Virus record (IMG/VR): IMGVR_UViG_3300025150_000002
Location: 32,001-96,000 of that record
Origin: a virus
Lineage: Duplodnaviria > Caudoviricetes
Reading direction: 5' to 3' (one strand)
DNA length: 64,000 nt
Shown here: piece by piece, positions 7,164 to 32,759 of the stretch
Layout of the letters: each line of letters begins with the position of its first letter
Position numbering within the stretch: the stretch's first letter is position 1
Position numbers and translations under genes: made by a program
Notes under the pieces: model-generated
Seen by the model: the letters and a program-made list of their open reading frames with translations, nothing else
Told to the model about the DNA's origin: nothing
Database searches by the model: none

Positions 7164-8816
7164 CTAGATGATGTATGTGGGAAACCCACTCCAATCGTCT
7201 CCGCCTTCCATCGGCAGGGGCGGCTCATCGGGCCATCTGAAGTTGCCATCAGCGGTCATTATGGCCTCTCCAGGAACCCCGGCGGCCTCGACGGCCACAC
7301 CCAACGAAATACCGCCTATTCCAATGTGCTGCCAGTTTGTGGCGAGGTAGTGGACAACGGCCGCGAAGGCGTCAGCTAGATCCTTCGACCCGGTCTTCGG
7401 GTGGTCAACCTTCGTTCCCTGATCGTTCAGCTCAAGCTCGCGAAGCTCCTTCGCGAGCATGGGGTAAACAGGCGTCTCGATCCGTCGCTCATACATCGCA
7501 CCCTGGGCCGCGAGGTACGGATCAAGCGTGCGTTGAGTCGAGATCTCCTCTGTCTTGAACCCGTGTCTGGCAATCAGCTGCAGGTTTGGGAGGCCCATCC
7601 AATGGTCCGCTGAGACGGACCGAATCGGAAGCCCTCCCTCGCGCAACTTATAGATGAGTCCTCGAACCAGTTCGTGCTCAATCTCGCCTGCATGAGGAGG
7701 GACAATGCGAAGACACATGTCGATGTGAATGATCGGGGCGTCCTCTTTGACCCGTTCACGAGTGACCGGGTCGAGACGGTCTACCTCTGTTTCTCCCGCT
7801 ACGTGGCCAACGCAGATGCCAGTGGCGTCTTTGTTTTTGGAGAGGTCCATGTGGCAGTGGCGGTGAGCATTAGGACAGCATCTCGGAACCGGATCACCAT
7901 GAACATTCGTCATGGTCATGTTGCCCCAGATGGGATTGATCTCCCGACTGGTGGTCCACTCGTAGACATGGAACGGGTGCGGCCGCTCCGGCTTCTGCAT
8001 GTCCTGGATGGCTTCTCGGTTCGAGAAGAACGGTCGGAACGACTCAAGCGCGATACCGGCGATATCGCGGGCCGCACCCGCCGGATCGTTCATGAACTCC
8101 TTGTAGTACTCGTCTGGGAACTTGAACCAGATCTCATCTTCTTCAGGCTGCTCTTCGTCCTTGAGAACCCGAACTCGACCGTGGTTTTGGTGTACAGCGG
8201 CACGCCACCATTTCTGACCAGCGAACGCGCCGGGCCGAACATCCCATGTCGCGTAGTCGCGACAGAAGACGTTGTTGTCCTCATCGGTAATGGCCTCGCG
8301 GAGTCGTCGCTCGGTAAAGTCGTGTATCGACTTTTTCGACGAGATCATGATCAGCCGACCGCGAAGACCCTTCGCCGCATAGGTGCCTCGAATACGACGG
8401 CGAAGCGAGTCGTAGATGCCCTCGGACTTATCATCCTTTCCACCACCCGCCGATACGTGGTTCCGTTGCTGCTTCGCGAAGAAGTTACCCTCGTCCATCA
8501 GCGCGGCCCAGACGTTGAGACCGAGAGCGGCGCCTTCACTCGAACCACCGGCGATGATGACGATGTCCTTTCCAGGAAACCGTATCTCCTCCTTGGTGTA
8601 ATCGTATCGTCCCTTCCAGAATGGGGCCAGCGTCATCTTCGCGACGATGCCCTTGAAGACGACTCGCTGAGCTGCCTCTTTGGTGTGCGAGATTGGGACG
8701 ATGTGAATAGTCTCGCCGCGTCCCAGGCCCAGGGTGTCAGTGGGGCGCTTAAGGCAATAGAGCTCGTATATGATTCGCAGCAGCGCTGTGGTGGAGAAGT
8801 AGTCCTTTCCATTCAA
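7164..8816 (-). CDS. terL: terminase large subunit, distal part (GKD of Walker A onward: Walker B, nuclease domain)
   Basis: GKDYFS..., AALMDEG Walker B, HCHMDLSKNKDATG and DHPKTGSKDLADA RNase H-like nuclease motifs. Confidence 0.9.
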   Translation of the reverse strand: MNGKDYFSTTALLRIIYELYCLKRPTDTLGLGRGETIHIVPISHTKEAAQRVVFKGIVAKMTLAPFWKGRYDYTKEEIRFPGKDIVIIAGGSSEGAALGLNVWAALMDEGNFFAKQQRNHVSAGGGKDDKSEGIYDSLRRRIRGTYAAKGLRGRLIMISSKKSIHDFTERRLREAITDEDNNVFCRDYATWDVRPGAFAGQKWWRAAVHQNHGRVRVLKDEEQPEEDEIWFKFPDEYYKEFMNDPAGAARDIAGIALESFRPFFSNREAIQDMQKPERPHPFHVYEWTTSREINPIWGNMTMTNVHGDPVPRCCPNAHRHCHMDLSKNKDATGICVGHVAGETEVDRLDPVTRERVKEDAPIIHIDMCLRIVPPHAGEIEHELVRGLIYKLREGGLPIRSVSADHWMGLPNLQLIARHGFKTEEISTQRTLDPYLAAQGAMYERRIETPVYPMLAKELRELELNDQGTKVDHPKTGSKDLADAFAAVVHYLATNWQHIGIGGISLGVAVEAAGVPGEAIMTADGNFRWPDEPPLPMEGGDDWSGFPTYII

Positions 8817-10429
8817 CCCCAGCGGGTGCTGTTATGAACGGAGATCCCATTGGCCGTGAATCGCGTCGGCCCAGGGACACCGATATCAGCAACACCCACT
8901 GGGTGGTTTGCCTCCTTCAGAGTCTTGATTTTTTCGTAAGCAACTGTGCTCGGGTAAGCCTCGGCAAGCGTCGTTACGCCCGCAACGTCACTAAAGTCCT
9001 CGCAGAACTCCTTGAACATTGATCGAGAAAACTGGACTGAGGAGCGCCCCAATCGATTCCATCCAAGCGGTGAGACCCCGCGACTTCTTCGCGATACTGC
9101 TTGCTGCTGCAACAGATGGGCGGCATCACCATAGGTAAAGGGGACGACATCTACATTGGTATTGGCGCGTGTACTGGAGACATAGTTTGCAATTTTCTCT
9201 GTTTCTTTCTCCTTCGCGAATACCTGACCAATGTGCTCCATGAACAGCCTGAGATTGTCAACACCTGTAACCTGAAGGCAGTAGCCGGTGGTTTCTTTAC
9301 CGTTCCTACTGGCCGTGTATTCGCGCGTTCGACTCTGGATGCTCCACCGAAGAAGAAGCAGCTGGACTTGCTGAATGAACCTCTCAGATGTCATTGCAAG
9401 CTGGAATCGGGGCGGCGATCCATCTCTATAGGCAACCGTACCCTCGGCGGCCCACACACGGTTGAGGAACAGAGCTACTTGATTCAGTGGTGCTCTACAT
9501 ACAGCATCTGGAACTTCCGCATCAGAGCAACCCATCCTGAAGATGCCCATCTGCTTGAGCCAGTCGCGGAAACCGCTGGTGATATAACGGCTTACATTAA
9601 CCTCCCAGGCGTTTCCCTTCGCATACGGCTCTGGCTTGGTAGCGTTGAACCCGAGAGCTTCGAGAGCCTCGATGAACTCCTGACCAGTTTTCTTACGACC
9701 ATCGCAGTAGCGAGCGCGAGTATCGGAAGATGAACCGTCAGTGACCATGTAGGCCAGGAGCTTCACCTCTTCGTCCCGAAGAGAGAAGTTCGACGGACGG
9801 TAGGTGATTTGTCTAGGCCGCAAAACGTAGTCCGACTCGACATCAAGCTGATCCGCTCTTACCCACCCACGCTGCGTGAGCACTCGGTGATCGGGGGTCA
9901 GCTTCACTCGCATCCCATTACGGAGTGTGAGCTCTAGCACCTTCATCACGCCCGAGTCGGTGCCCACAGTCGTGTCGTGGTGCCCGACTCCATCAGTCTC
10001 GTGGACGGTGAGGACACGTGTTTTCCGACCGATCAGGTCTCCAAGGATGGGCATGGAGCCGTCGGAGCACTGGACAAGGGCCTGCTTGTCGATGCAACCT
10101 GTGAGGATGCACTCAGCGTAGTCGCCCTCGAAGAACTCAATCATGTCCTCCTTGAGCTTTGGCCACAGTGTACGCGCCGTCTCCCCCAGGTAGTATTCGT
10201 CGTTGACCCACTGCGTTATAGGCACTGGCGGCCCAGTGTCTGGGTCCCATTCCATTCGTTCAGCTGCGTCGACGAGTTCCTGCTGCTGCTTTGAGGCTAG
10301 CTCCTGCACCAGCAGGTCTAGGGCTGCTTTCTCCTCCGCAGTCAGTCCTTTGATCTCTTCTTCGATGAGCTTTCGCGCCTCATCTACTGGACGATGGCTG
10401 CGGAAACGACCATTCGAGTAGACGATCAT
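8813..10429 (-). CDS. terL: terminase large subunit, proximal part with intein; stops inside Walker A (ILTG-intein-STRWG*)
   Basis: N-extein ends ECILTG; after the intein STRWG then TGA; GSTRWG + KD gives the P-loop. Confidence 0.9.
   Translation of the reverse strand: MIVYSNGRFRSHRPVDEARKLIEEEIKGLTAEEKAALDLLVQELASKQQQELVDAAERMEWDPDTGPPVPITQWVNDEYYLGETARTLWPKLKEDMIEFFEGDYAECILTGCIDKQALVQCSDGSMPILGDLIGRKTRVLTVHETDGVGHHDTTVGTDSGVMKVLELTLRNGMRVKLTPDHRVLTQRGWVRADQLDVESDYVLRPRQITYRPSNFSLRDEEVKLLAYMVTDGSSSDTRARYCDGRKKTGQEFIEALEALGFNATKPEPYAKGNAWEVNVSRYITSGFRDWLKQMGIFRMGCSDAEVPDAVCRAPLNQVALFLNRVWAAEGTVAYRDGSPPRFQLAMTSERFIQQVQLLLLRWSIQSRTREYTASRNGKETTGYCLQVTGVDNLRLFMEHIGQVFAKEKETEKIANYVSSTRANTNVDVVPFTYGDAAHLLQQQAVSRRSRGVSPLGWNRLGRSSVQFSRSMFKEFCEDFSDVAGVTTLAEAYPSTVAYEKIKTLKEANHPVGVADIGVPGPTRFTANGISVHNSTRWG
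8831..10096 (-). mobile_element. intein (422 aa, class 1) with LAGLIDADG endonuclease in TerL Walker A
   Basis: Starts CIDKQ; block B LTPDHRV; LAYMVTDG and FLNRVWAAEG motifs; ends GISVHN followed by Ser. Confidence 0.93.
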
Positions 10430-12427
10430 CTACTCACCATCCGTTAGCCGCTTCGGATCGTTGTCGACAACCGCGCCATTTACATCGATGGTGTTGGCAT
10501 CTTCAGTAGCCGCCCTGAGGATCTTCTCGGCAAGCCCGAGCAGTCGGTGGCGGGAGTTGGGGTTGTCAAGCGCGGTGAGCGGGTGGTCCTGACCAAACCG
10601 GTCCGCGAAGGTCGGCTGCTTGTCGATCCTGGCCCGGATCTCAATGCCAGCCTTGGGTAGGTAACCGGTCTCCTGGAGAATTCGGGTCTTGGTGCTCAGG
10701 GTCTTGGTAGCTATGTCCAGAAACTTGGCCTTTTCGCTGTTGTGTACGACTATGCCATCTGCGACAAAGTTGTGCTCCTTGTGCCCTACTTCGATGTCGT
10801 AAACAACTGCTTCCCCGCACGCTTCGATAGAGATCACCGACTCGGCGTGGAACGGCCGCTGTAGCTTCCTACGTGTGAAGTTAAGCGAGTGACTTGTCCC
10901 GCTCTTGATGAAACTACCATCCTTCAGGATGTGGTCGTCGGTCCTAGTCCGAGAGAGAATTCGACCGGATGCGTAGCCCAGACCATCGACTAGGCACTTC
11001 AAGTCCCGCACGAGCGCGTAGTTACAGAGCTCGACCGACACCTTCATCGAGTGGTGCGGCTTTGGTCTACAGCGGTGCCCGTCCCCATCCATGAATCCTA
11101 CGAGGAATGCCTCCCGATAGTCCTCAGACAGGCCGAAAACCCAGCCAGGAATGCGCTTGACGTGGGCTCCGTCAATCCAGCCGAGCCGGTCAAATACCCG
11201 TGCGAGCGCGACGGACGTCGAGTAGATGTTCTGACACCCTTGGTCTGTTGGGCGAATGTAGGCACGAGGATTAAACTGGCGCATCAGCTTGAGATAGACA
11301 TCGGCCAGATGACGGTCCTTACCGGGGTTTGCCACCAGCGTCGCCGTTCGCGAAGCGCGGTTGATCCAACCATCTGCAAGCCAGAACCCGAACAATCGAC
11401 AGAAATCGGGTGTTACCCGAGTTGGCAGGGTCAGATCGCTACAACCAGTGGCGCCGTGGCCGCCTGTCAACTCCCAGTGCGGTTTGTCCAAAACAAGGCC
11501 TACTCGGTCGAACATGTCAACCATCACGTGCAGCCGCACTCCATGCTTCCCTTCACGGATGTGGCTCCACTGGATCTTTAGCCCGTGGTCCTCCAGAAAC
11601 CGAGTTCTGAAGCCGTGCTTCTTCCACGTAATAGAGGCTGAATCCAACGTATCTTTGCCAAGAGTCGTCAGCCGCACGAAACTATCGTCTGAGAATCGCG
11701 GAGCGAGGGCGCGCAAAATGGGAGGAGCTGCGACAAACGCAGGCTCCGTCGCGATGACTATCTTGTCACCGACAACCCTAGGTGACACACTTCGGTTGCT
11801 CGTCGTGAGCTGGTCAAGGGCGGTCCACCGCAGACTACCCTTGGTGCTGCAGATAAATGGGTGATTCCCTGTGGCTACGATTTCGCGGTGCCGGGTTCTT
11901 AGCCTGTACACAGGCTGCTTGCCCTTCGGAATAAGCGCCACAACAGGGGCCATAACCGCCCCTCCCTCATCATGCACCATGACCAAATCACCGGCTTTGA
12001 TGTCCTGAATCTGCACCATACCTCGATTAGTCCAGATCCTGGTTTCGCCGAGTAGGCATCCGCTCTTGGCCATCGAATACTCTTGGAAGGCGGCAGCCGT
12101 AAGAGCGTCCAGCTTCTGCACGGTCATCCCGAGCTCGATATTGGCGTAATCGGGGTTGTCCTTGATGCGCCCAACTCGTTCTGCGACCTGCTCTCGCCAG
12201 TACTTGACATCCAGTGCTACCGTAGACCGGGCCACACCCAATAGGCCAGCCATCTCAGTCTGAGGAACCTCCTGACACATCATCTCCCAGATGTCTTGTC
12301 GACGACGCTCAATCGCCTGAGCGGTGTGCTTCTTCCGCTTGCTTTCCAACTGATCGAACTTCTTGCGAAATTCGTCGATTGATGCCTGAGCAGCCGAAGC
12401 CTTCTTGCTCAGCCTCTTCTTGGCCAT
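10430..12427 (-). CDS. putative terminase small subunit (HTH) with intein
   Basis: HTH QTEMAGLLGVARSTVALDV; abuts terL; about 225 aa after intein removal. Confidence 0.65.
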   Translation of the reverse strand: MAKKRLSKKASAAQASIDEFRKKFDQLESKRKKHTAQAIERRRQDIWEMMCQEVPQTEMAGLLGVARSTVALDVKYWREQVAERVGRIKDNPDYANIELGMTVQKLDALTAAAFQEYSMAKSGCLLGETRIWTNRGMVQIQDIKAGDLVMVHDEGGAVMAPVVALIPKGKQPVYRLRTRHREIVATGNHPFICSTKGSLRWTALDQLTTSNRSVSPRVVGDKIVIATEPAFVAAPPILRALAPRFSDDSFVRLTTLGKDTLDSASITWKKHGFRTRFLEDHGLKIQWSHIREGKHGVRLHVMVDMFDRVGLVLDKPHWELTGGHGATGCSDLTLPTRVTPDFCRLFGFWLADGWINRASRTATLVANPGKDRHLADVYLKLMRQFNPRAYIRPTDQGCQNIYSTSVALARVFDRLGWIDGAHVKRIPGWVFGLSEDYREAFLVGFMDGDGHRCRPKPHHSMKVSVELCNYALVRDLKCLVDGLGYASGRILSRTRTDDHILKDGSFIKSGTSHSLNFTRRKLQRPFHAESVISIEACGEAVVYDIEVGHKEHNFVADGIVVHNSEKAKFLDIATKTLSTKTRILQETGYLPKAGIEIRARIDKQPTFADRFGQDHPLTALDNPNSRHRLLGLAEKILRAATEDANTIDVNGAVVDNDPKRLTDGE
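10739..12058 (-). mobile_element. intein (440 aa, class 1) with LAGLIDADG endonuclease
   Basis: Starts CLLGETRI; ATGNHPF; LFGFWLADG and FLVGFMDGDG; VYDIEV; ends GIVVHN followed by Ser. Confidence 0.93.
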
Positions 12428-31685: not shown

Positions 31686-32759
31686 ATGTCCAGGACATTC
31701 ATCCGTCAAGACACGCAGATTCAGTCGAGTGATGCTTACGACGATACCGTCGCTCCCTCGCTGGCGAACTTCGAGACAAATCCGACGCACATCGAAACGG
31801 ACCTCAACAACGTCCGGTCGATGCTATCGCACCTGCTCGACGTTCAAGTCGGTAATTGGTATGACGTTATCTCGACGCCGGTCACACTAGAAACCGGCTC
31901 GCAACGAGGCGTCAGTGACCTCAACACCGCGCTGCACCTGGTCGAGAAGAAGCGCATTCTGCGGGACGTCTGCAATCTCGTGGACATCACCGTTCCGGCT
32001 TCTGTTACGGCTACGAGCTCGATCGTCACTGATGTCCAGGCAAACTACACGGACGGACAGACGTTCGCACTGATTGATGCGACCGGTCAGACCATCACGT
32101 TCGAGTTTGACACAGTTCCCAACGGGGTCGGCGGTGGCAACACAGCTGTTGACATTTCCGGAGACACTACGGCCGACAACGTCCGAGACTCGATCATCTC
32201 GGCGATCAACGGTGTCGGCGGCACACTACTCATAACCGCCGGCATCGGCGGTGCCGGAACTGTCTCGTTGACGCAAGACGTCGGCGGTTCGAGCGGTAAC
32301 ACGAACGTTGCCACGACCGGCGGCCCTCCCGGCACCTACAACGCTTTCACTGGCGGAACTGGTGACGTGGTCATCCTCGGGACTGGCGAGCTTCCGACCC
32401 AGACAACCGCCGCCGTAGGTGCTGTCACGACTCTGGGAACCGTCGTAGCGGCCCACACGGGGATCTTCGGGAACATCACTCTCGACGAGGTTTCGGGACC
32501 TAACGCCGTCCAGCCCAAGAACCTGATGCAGATCGTGGACGGGAATACCAGGGACCCGATTCTGTCGTCGAGCCGCACCGTTTACGGCCTGCTGCAGGGC
32601 GAGTCTGGTGTTGTCGACGGCGCGACCATTACAGACACAACCACCACACGAGTTCAGATCAGTTTTGTGCGGATCACCTCCAACGGTTCGGACCTGGAGC
32701 GTGTTCCGGCATCAGATATCGCTGGAATGACAATCAACTACTGCACCCGCGAGCGGTGA
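31686..32759 (+). CDS. virion structural protein
   Basis: 357 aa, T/G/V-rich; TITFEFD...GNTAVDI module. Confidence 0.7.
   Translation: MSRTFIRQDTQIQSSDAYDDTVAPSLANFETNPTHIETDLNNVRSMLSHLLDVQVGNWYDVISTPVTLETGSQRGVSDLNTALHLVEKKRILRDVCNLVDITVPASVTATSSIVTDVQANYTDGQTFALIDATGQTITFEFDTVPNGVGGGNTAVDISGDTTADNVRDSIISAINGVGGTLLITAGIGGAGTVSLTQDVGGSSGNTNVATTGGPPGTYNAFTGGTGDVVILGTGELPTQTTAAVGAVTTLGTVVAAHTGIFGNITLDEVSGPNAVQPKNLMQIVDGNTRDPILSSSRTVYGLLQGESGVVDGATITDTTTTRVQISFVRITSNGSDLERVPASDIAGMTINYCTRER

Follow-up and report, generated by a model that had tools for sequence, protein, structure and literature searches.

A gap within the Walker A loop of a predicted large terminase

How one large terminase (TerL) can be made from two open reading frames (ORFs) that part within its Walker A loop is the question raised by a locus on the minus strand of a 64,000-nucleotide (nt) stretch of phage DNA (hereafter the window; positions 32,001 to 96,000 of IMG/VR record IMGVR_UViG_3300025150_000002). 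Across the break, the minus strand reads ...GTT CAT AAC / AGC ACC CGC TGG GGT TGA AT GGA AAG GAC TAC. ORF1 (10429-8813; 538 amino acids) comprises an N-extein, an intein, and the residues STRWG followed by TGA, and ORF2 (8816-7164), in the -1 frame relative to ORF1, reads (L)NGKDYFSTTALL.... An earlier note on this DNA had described an 8-nt break in Walker A and proposed that ribosomes hop over it; its coordinates and codons were found to be exactly as described. On sequence evidence, we consider a programmed short translational bypass (ribosome hop) to be the probable route to TerL, and hold this reading with moderate confidence.

The TerL N-extein (10094-10429; 112 amino acids, C-terminus ...AECILTG) is collinear with residues 1-112 of intact homologues. 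It is followed by a LAGLIDADG homing intein of 421 amino acids (8831-10093), assigned by Pfam matches with junctions taken from the sequence, and by a C-extein stub, AGC ACC CGC TGG GGT (8816-8830), whose translation equals the STRWG of intact homologues and whose last codon is the putative take-off Gly codon GGT (8818-8816). The non-coding gap TGAATGGA (8808-8815) consists of the stop TGA (8815-8813), AT, and a landing-type Gly codon, GGA (8810-8808); it is missing in intact alleles and was found in independent samples. The remainder of TerL (7164-8807; 547 codons and a stop) starts at AAG (8807-8805), the codon of the Walker A Lys, reads KDYF..., and carries Walker B (LMDEGNF) and the nuclease motifs. 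The two ORFs thus encode one conserved protein: intact relatives read ILTGSTRWGKDYF, the window has the 8 nt of TGAATGGA extra, and removal of the gap restores ILTGSTRWGKDYF. Since uninterrupted homologues of 662-663 amino acids (P0003, P0005, P0006, P0008, and P0010) read ECILTGSTRWGKDYFSTTAL, this deletion restores the family motif exactly. The Gly and Lys on either side of the break did not vary in either of two alignments, which comprised 43 and 48 homologues.

As ORF2 gave no match in local Pfam, PHROGs, or PDB sequence libraries, the assignment to TerL needed a fold search. A large protein collection held 87 homologues of ORF2, most of them 660-680 amino acids long and reading ECILTGSTRWGKDYFSTTAL unbroken, with approximately 12 ORF2-only proteins of 540-570 amino acids among them. 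The AlphaFold model of the intact homologue P0003 (predicted local distance difference test score, 83) matched HK97 TerL by Foldseek with an E value of 8e-16, and T4 gp17, D6E, and Sf6 gp2 with values near 1e-12, all within 1e-11. The modeled structure, an additional-strand, conserved-glutamate (ASCE) ATPase with Walker A and B motifs joined to an RNase H-like nuclease fold, identifies the predicted product as a large terminase. Together with the collinearity of intact homologues, it bore out the earlier proposal that the two ORFs are halves of one TerL. The family is tagged PF27249 MJ0330_N in the database and gave no match to PF03354.

The phage record (203,521 bp; groundwater) contains one copy of this TerL family. 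No second terL was found in the 203.5-kb record, which gave no match to Terminase_6N, TerL_ATPase, Terminase_3, or Terminase_6C. Because the family is present in a single copy and no other terminase family was matched, it is apparently the sole packaging ATPase whose Walker A loop is broken here.

The gap of the window also contains an ATG, which opens a 59-amino-acid ORF in the third frame (8812-8633) overlapping the start of ORF2. As a functional start codon, this ATG was rejected: it leads to the 59-amino-acid third-frame ORF only, is missing from 5-nt gaps in related alleles, and is probably meaningless.

An allelic series of gaps at one Gly/Lys junction

Alignment of related TerLs showed that the site of the gap is conserved and that its length varies. 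At least 13 distinct alleles, with ORF2 identities of 44-90%, were broken at the same Gly/Lys junction; 13 were read at the DNA level, and a fourteenth (P0029) was deduced from protein only. The 8-nt gaps were TGAATGGA (window, L107, L001, and L101), TGAATGGT (L097 and L113), and TGAATCGC (L114 and L200). Gaps of 5 nt read TAAGC (L004), TGAGT (L005), and TGAGC (L110), the 6-nt gap of L111/L099 reads TGAGGA, which provides an in-frame stop, and L017 has a 16-nt gap, TGACCTCGAAATTCTC, with ORF2 in the +1 frame. In 13 of 13 alleles, a stop codon (TGA or TAA) directly follows the take-off Gly codon and reading restarts at AAG, and removal of the gap restores the invariant motif exactly. A scan of IMG/VR with the pattern TGGGGY-TRA-N(2-20)-AAGGAYTWYTT gave 82 matches; the L017 contig alone among them was genuinely related.

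The gaps show no codon periodicity, and their lengths of 5, 6, 8, and 16 nt place ORF2 in the -1, 0, or +1 frame; therefore, no single frameshift direction serves all alleles. ORF2 was open over 547-560 codons wherever a contig covered the whole of it, and was longer where further in-frame inteins were present. Pairwise ratios of nonsynonymous to synonymous substitution rates (dN/dS) among the ORF2s of gap alleles were 0.06-0.35. These intact and constrained ORF2s are therefore functional genes rather than decaying ones.

A dead or artefactual allele, arising from a frameshift mutation, an assembly error, a defective phage, or complementation by another terminase, would also leave a break in TerL, and the earlier note had allowed for such origins. 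In their favor, the record is a metagenomic assembly estimated to be 89% complete, and the evidence comes from contigs rather than raw reads. Ten public runs, mostly from groundwater or aquifers, contained at least half of the sampled words of the window. Contigs X4, X5, and X7, from three runs other than the likely source, covered 8805-8833 with zero differences and zero gaps, a comparison of contigs in which minority variants would not show. The same 8 nt occurred in L107, a 90% identical relative from another sample. The gap is therefore not an assembly error. Breaks at the same junction in 13 alleles from many samples, purifying selection on complete ORF2s, an RNA stem that covaries specifically in gap alleles (described below), and the lack of any other terminase family match in the record likewise speak against a dead allele, and we regard this whole class of explanations as highly improbable.

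Single-nucleotide programmed frameshifting would join the two ORFs by a -1 slip on G-GGG-T in alleles with 5- and 8-nt gaps and by a +1 slip in the allele with the 16-nt gap, giving a TerL with two to five extra Walker A residues (WG-LNG-KD in the window). Four G in a row ahead of the stop form a classic shifty-stop context, a Gly-Lys dipeptide is kept in the -1 frame by the 8-nt forms with GGA or GGT, and the few substitutions observed within gaps (GGA/GGT, AGC/AGT, and TTG/CTG/TTA) are synonymous in that frame. However, the inserted residues would differ by allele (LS, LNG, or LNR after a -1 slip and DLEIL after a +1 slip), and most would destroy the Gly-Lys dipeptide. Slippage would have to run in opposite directions in different alleles, as L017 needs +1, and L111 would need more than one event. 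No slippery heptamer of the form X XXY YYZ and no conserved 3' structure was found; the hairpins on the 3' side were weak, heterogeneous, and unconserved, and the conserved structure lies on the 5' side, which favors forward movement over a -1 slip. We consider frameshifting quite unlikely, and the -1 product GSTRWGLNGKD raised as an alternative in the earlier note did not hold up across the alleles.

Two further readings were rejected. An alternative genetic code, with TGA read as Gly or Trp, would leave the frame broken, and L004 uses TAA. A split intein with trans-splicing was discarded because ORF2 contains no intein fragment. Regarding stop usage, the long ORFs of the window (at least 250 codons, whole window, crude set) ended in TAG in 20 of 29 cases, in TGA in five, and in TAA in four. 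As TAG ends most long ORFs, TGA is a minority stop in this phage; it is the gap stop in nearly all alleles.

A forward hop provides the best fit to the series, as it accounts for an exact Walker A in every allele, any gap length, and the obligatory stop after take-off, and the earlier proposal of such a hop gains from the finding that the gap lengths give all three frames. The matched Gly take-off and landing codons on which that proposal was built are present in the window (GGT/GGA) and were also observed in L001, L097, L101, L107, and L113, and at both hops of L111 the codons are matched; as a general rule the match failed, with AGC or AGT, CGC, and CTC found in the landing position elsewhere. 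At L111:2270-2320 (the same sequence as L099/L112), a sequence recovered in two independent assemblies, two events would be needed, three codons apart. One is GGT-TGA-GGA, a move from Gly to Gly across TGA. The other, at an additional insert of 5 nt that lies three codons further upstream in L111/L099, is ATT-AG-ATC, where one Ile codon would be left for another while the A site holds AGA, the least used Arg codon of the window. Forward hopping is the only simple model for L111, in which both events would join matched codons.

A long-range stem between intein and P-loop codons

The conserved signal associated with the gap is a long-range stem between intein and extein on its 5' side, which the earlier note had missed. 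In most alleles with a gap and an intein at site a (IL/TG; see below), the mRNA is predicted to fold into a hairpin whose outer stem pairs 7-10 nt of the intein with the P-loop codons and stops on the GG of the take-off codon. The two arms co-vary (CGG-CCG, GGT-ACC, GGA-TCC, GGC-AGT with G.U, and CGC-GTG), and the G.U pairs indicate that the structure belongs to the sense RNA. When arms were swapped among all 11 site-a alleles, cognate duplexes had a mean of -15.4 kcal/mol compared with -12.3 kcal/mol for non-cognate ones, and none of 50000 permutations reached the observed mean. Column-wise covariation was 0.245 against 0.143 +/- 0.021 in shuffles (0/500), with a maximum of four pair types per position, and sliding the 3' partners by one to three columns reduced it to at most 0.136. 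This second measure was limited to eight in-register sequences, because the MAFFT alignment of the 11 site-a alleles misregistered L110, L200, and L111. RNAalifold independently gave the same helix and lengthened it by pairing the first two stop-codon bases; the TAA of L004 is accommodated there by a U-A pair.

The window, with an unrelated intein at site b (TG/ST), presented the same layout. A 14-bp stem is formed by a 5' arm, CCCAGUGGGUGUUG (8903-8890), within the intein coding sequence and a 3' arm, CAGCACCCGCUGGG (8831-8818), which spans the whole C-extein stub as far as the initial G of the take-off codon. The duplex, at -23.7 kcal/mol, was reached by one of 1042 control positions of the TerL gene, and the 116-nt fold had -50.3 kcal/mol (z = -3.48). 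In the control scan of 7164-10429 (minus strand), one other position of TerL had a stronger 12-mer upstream duplex (-28.2 kcal/mol). L107, also a site-b gap allele, retains the stem (-21.7 kcal/mol). Gap-less L105 (site b) has lost it (-8.3 kcal/mol) because of four synonymous changes in the STRWG codons, AGT ACA AGA TGG GGA replacing AGC ACC CGC TGG GGT, and the gap-less site-a alleles also lack a stem (-6.3 and -9.5 kcal/mol). Gap alleles thus carry a 5' mRNA structure that is maintained by compensatory changes and is specific to them. By analogy with known systems, it probably acts as a stimulator or driver of forward movement.

A different stem, a bulged one of 7 bp over the landing site (UGGA-AAG/CUU-C-UCCA), had been suggested in the earlier note. 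It can form in the window and in L001; as a signal it fared less well, since it is also present in gap-less L197 and is absent or different in most gap alleles, which marks it as chance or a by-product of coding.

In most gap alleles, an AAGGAGG-like motif resembling a Shine-Dalgarno (SD) sequence precedes the stem by 4-7 nt; in the window it reads GAAGGAGGC (8910-8918) and lies 7 nt 5' of the stem. The distance is approximately 6-13 nt in L200, and the motif is degenerate in L017 and L111. It is kept at the nucleotide level across reading frames, as it encodes K-E in L001, K-G-G in L114, and E-G-G in L110.

Because of this SD-like motif bridged by a hairpin, termination followed by reinitiation is the most serious rival of the hop. 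According to this explanation, a ribosome held by AAGGAGG is brought by the hairpin to the stop and restarts at an overlapping TTG, CTG, or GTG, so that TerL would consist of two pieces, a spliced N-fragment of 117 amino acids (...GSTRWG) and a chain starting M-N-G-K-D-Y-F..., assembled non-covalently. A split ribosome-binding site brought together by a hairpin is a feature of T4 gene 38. The conservation of this near-perfect motif at the nucleotide level in different frames in most gap alleles agrees with reinitiation, as does its position some 5-9 nt from the overlap of stop and TTG (gTTGa in the window) once the stem has formed; variable gap lengths are compatible with independent initiation, and in several alleles a GTG or TTG is in frame with ORF2. 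However, no in-frame ATG, GTG, or TTG precedes the Lys of ORF2 in L017, in L111, or in L107 (which has CTG only), and initiation at the first Met of L111 would remove the Walker Lys. Where TTG or CTG occurs, approximately half each, the choice tracks the wobble base of the Gly codon; therefore, the start is not selected. Moreover, the chain would be split between the invariant Gly and Lys of the P-loop, and we know of no protein split at this point. Reinitiation also leaves unexplained the retention of every base of the intact motif flanking the gap. We judge a two-piece TerL to be unlikely, despite the arrangement of the motif.

Proposed model of translational bypass

In the proposed bypass, translation would proceed through N-extein and intein to the last codon of S-T-R-W-G. 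The peptidyl-tRNA-Gly would then occupy GGT while TGA, a stop, stands in the A site; it would detach from the mRNA, which would slide by 8 nt, and the tRNA would pair anew at GGA, with decoding restarting at AAG. One chain would result, and protein splicing would convert it to TerL with an intact Walker A (GSTRWGKD). The long-range stem may drive the forward movement by zipping up as the mRNA of its 3' arm leaves the ribosome: the 5' arm belongs to the intein, and the stretch that would still be inside the ribosome at take-off forms the 3' arm. The length of the 3' arm approximates the mRNA span from the P site to the exit channel, and a 5' structure with such an arm is what would be expected of a driver that zips as the mRNA exits. 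AAGGAGG at the base of the stem may aid the landing position. We infer the hop and its efficiency, as well as the functions assigned to the stem and to the SD-like motif, from the conserved sequence features described above.

Several points weigh against this model. A GGN landing triplet ends only five of the nine distinct gap sequences. The 5-nt gaps offer AGC or AGT and two of the 8-nt gaps offer CGC, each of which can form two of the three base pairs with tRNA-Gly(GCC); the CTC of the 16-nt gap can form one of three. Short unassisted hops reportedly occur at approximately 1% in E. coli. A search of public runs found no RNA run that holds the TerL locus, and the fused product is a prediction from sequence. 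The SD-like motif is approximately 60-100 nt upstream in linear sequence and could serve reinitiation instead, and the role given to the stem is drawn by analogy. Finally, incompleteness of the record leaves some room for a second terL.

Linkage of the gap to P-loop inteins

In this TerL family, the P-loop is a hotspot for inteins, with three sites. Site a (IL/TG) holds HNH-type inteins and derived mini-inteins that end in ...GV(F/I)SSN, site b (TG/ST) holds the LAGLIDADG intein of the window, and site c (GK/T), in a more distant clade, holds an intein in frame and no gap. The element of the window has the hallmarks of a homing intein, with Pfam matches to Intein_splicing (8e-12) and LAGLIDADG_3 (2.5e-14), Cys1 (CIDKQ...), a block B TPDH, two LAGLIDADG motifs, the end ...ANGISVHN, and Ser at +1; splicing is predicted from these motifs.

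Each gap allele carries a site-a or site-b intein 5-7 codons upstream of the gap. The gap was present in 14 of 17 alleles with an intein at site a or b and in none of approximately 45 intein-less alleles (Fisher p = 2e-11, for alleles that are not phylogenetically independent), in agreement with the link to a homing element drawn in the earlier note. The three gap-less intein alleles are L105 (site b), L198, and L197 (both site a). As a clean gap-less control, L197 (P0064) was downgraded, since it has a second lesion at another intein site in TerL. At L197:1360-1400, the RDY/ATWDV intein site, 15 nt for ATWDV are replaced by TCCAA and the frame is shifted; the lesion could be the scar of an imprecise intein loss, a chimeric contig, or a sign of a dead gene.

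The same TGAATGGA accompanies either intein type and recurs in backgrounds that share only 47% identity, and L101 has the STRWG variant typical of the clade of the window. These observations suggest, at the sequence level, that the module has spread between divergent terminases by homing with co-conversion. Half of the signal being intein RNA, the gap would be expected only in intein-bearing alleles, and precise loss of the intein would kill TerL expression in gap alleles. Intein and gap may thus form an interdependent selfish module that combines addiction blocking intein loss, endonuclease immunity, and spread by homing. We offer this as a tentative, somewhat doubtful interpretation; if it is true, an allele can tolerate the gap only for as long as it retains its intein. 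By analogy, the gap in the extein may protect its carrier from the site-a HNH endonuclease or from rival P-loop inteins, a question on which the evidence here is the correlation of gap and intein. The data suggest that intein RNA is part of the recoding signal, which, if true, would be a novel means by which a selfish element avoids being lost.

Comparison with known bypassing systems

To our knowledge, natural bypassing is confined to very few systems, namely T4 gene 60 and its relatives, one yeast mitochondrion, and the candidate phiHau3. The present locus would be a variant of this known, very rare form of recoding, and its new aspects are the intein link, the stem, and the allelic series.

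The closest counterpart in position is TerL of phiHau3, the Streptomyces phage terminase cited as a precedent in the earlier note, which is a candidate for bypassing and whose first gap, of 10 nt, reads GGC TTACTCCGGT AAG in TGG GGC...AAG GAC (Smith et al. 2013; PMC10732093). A junction peptide from E. coli was detected by mass spectrometry (PMC10732093), and the proposed signals are a 5' stem-loop, a flanking SD-like sequence, and a WG nascent peptide. The precedent proved apt, since the gap falls in TerL at the same Walker A position (GWG/KD), is short and frame-shifting, and is followed by resumption at AAG GAC, with take-off at GGC and landing at GGT. In phiHau3, the A site holds the rare UUA codon and the bypass is proposed to be regulatory via the host bldA tRNA, whereas a stop codon is present here. 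The present system also differs in its allelic series of gap lengths, its strict link to P-loop inteins, its covarying stem with a 5' arm in the intein, and its TerL of a different sequence family (PF27249-type).

T4 gene 60 shares with the window a Gly take-off codon with a stop directly after it, a matched Gly landing codon, the production (predicted for the window) of one chain from two ORFs, and a gap genetically linked to a homing element (the mobA cassette). A 5' mRNA structure has been proposed for forward movement in gene 60 (bioRxiv 10.1101/2024.12.09.627546). Its gap is 50 nt compared with 5-16 nt here, the homing element is a free-standing endonuclease gene rather than an intein, and landing codons in the present series are not always matched. 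At this locus, nothing corresponding to the take-off stem-loop of gene 60 or to its KKYK... nascent peptide was found.

The Byp elements of Magnusiomyces capitatus mitochondria are many short, mobile, non-coding inserts in essential genes that are bypassed (PMC5009743). They resemble the present gaps in variable length and in pairing at two of three positions on landing (PMC5009743), but are GC-rich, 27-55 nt long, and located in a eukaryotic organelle with relaxed decoding, whereas the gaps here occupy a single site of a phage gene and are tied to inteins. Stop-hopping in E. coli, with hops of +5/+6 (Weiss et al. 1987), is similar in re-pairing 5-6 nt past a stop, a pattern that GGT-TGA-GGA of L111 follows. 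Those hops are low-level laboratory events, whereas an essential gene would depend on the hop proposed here, which is accompanied by conserved, putatively stimulatory elements.

At this locus, an essential ATPase motif would have both protein splicing and ribosome hopping no more than five codons away. The alleles constitute a natural one-site series with gaps of 5, 6, 8, and 16 nt, matched and unmatched landing codons, a double hop, and gap-less intein controls. With such a series and a covarying stem, the rules of short hops become testable, including whether pairing of the exiting mRNA drives the slide. Gene callers split such terminases into two "hypothetical" ORFs, so that phage annotation and TerL-based phylogenies miss them.

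Further inteins and the upstream gene

Inteins in the TerL family were observed at no fewer than seven sites: IL/TG, TG/ST, GK/T, Walker B DE/(T/S)NF, RDY/STWDV, DP(A/T)G/S(T/L)RD, and HPKTG/SKD, with up to three inteins in single TerL genes. Intein-bearing homologues include P0004, P0009, P0011, P0016, P0018, P0019, P0021, P0023, P0036, P0049, P0080, and P0081, and intein-bearing loci include L031, L039, L062, L080, and L082.

Upstream of TerL, a helix-turn-helix (HTH) gene resembling a small terminase (10430-12427, minus strand), whose relatives gave matches to HTH and sigma-70 region 4, has a LAGLIDADG intein of its own of approximately 440 amino acids (AKSG/C...VVHN/SEKAKF). With inteins in both packaging genes, both therefore need protein splicing.

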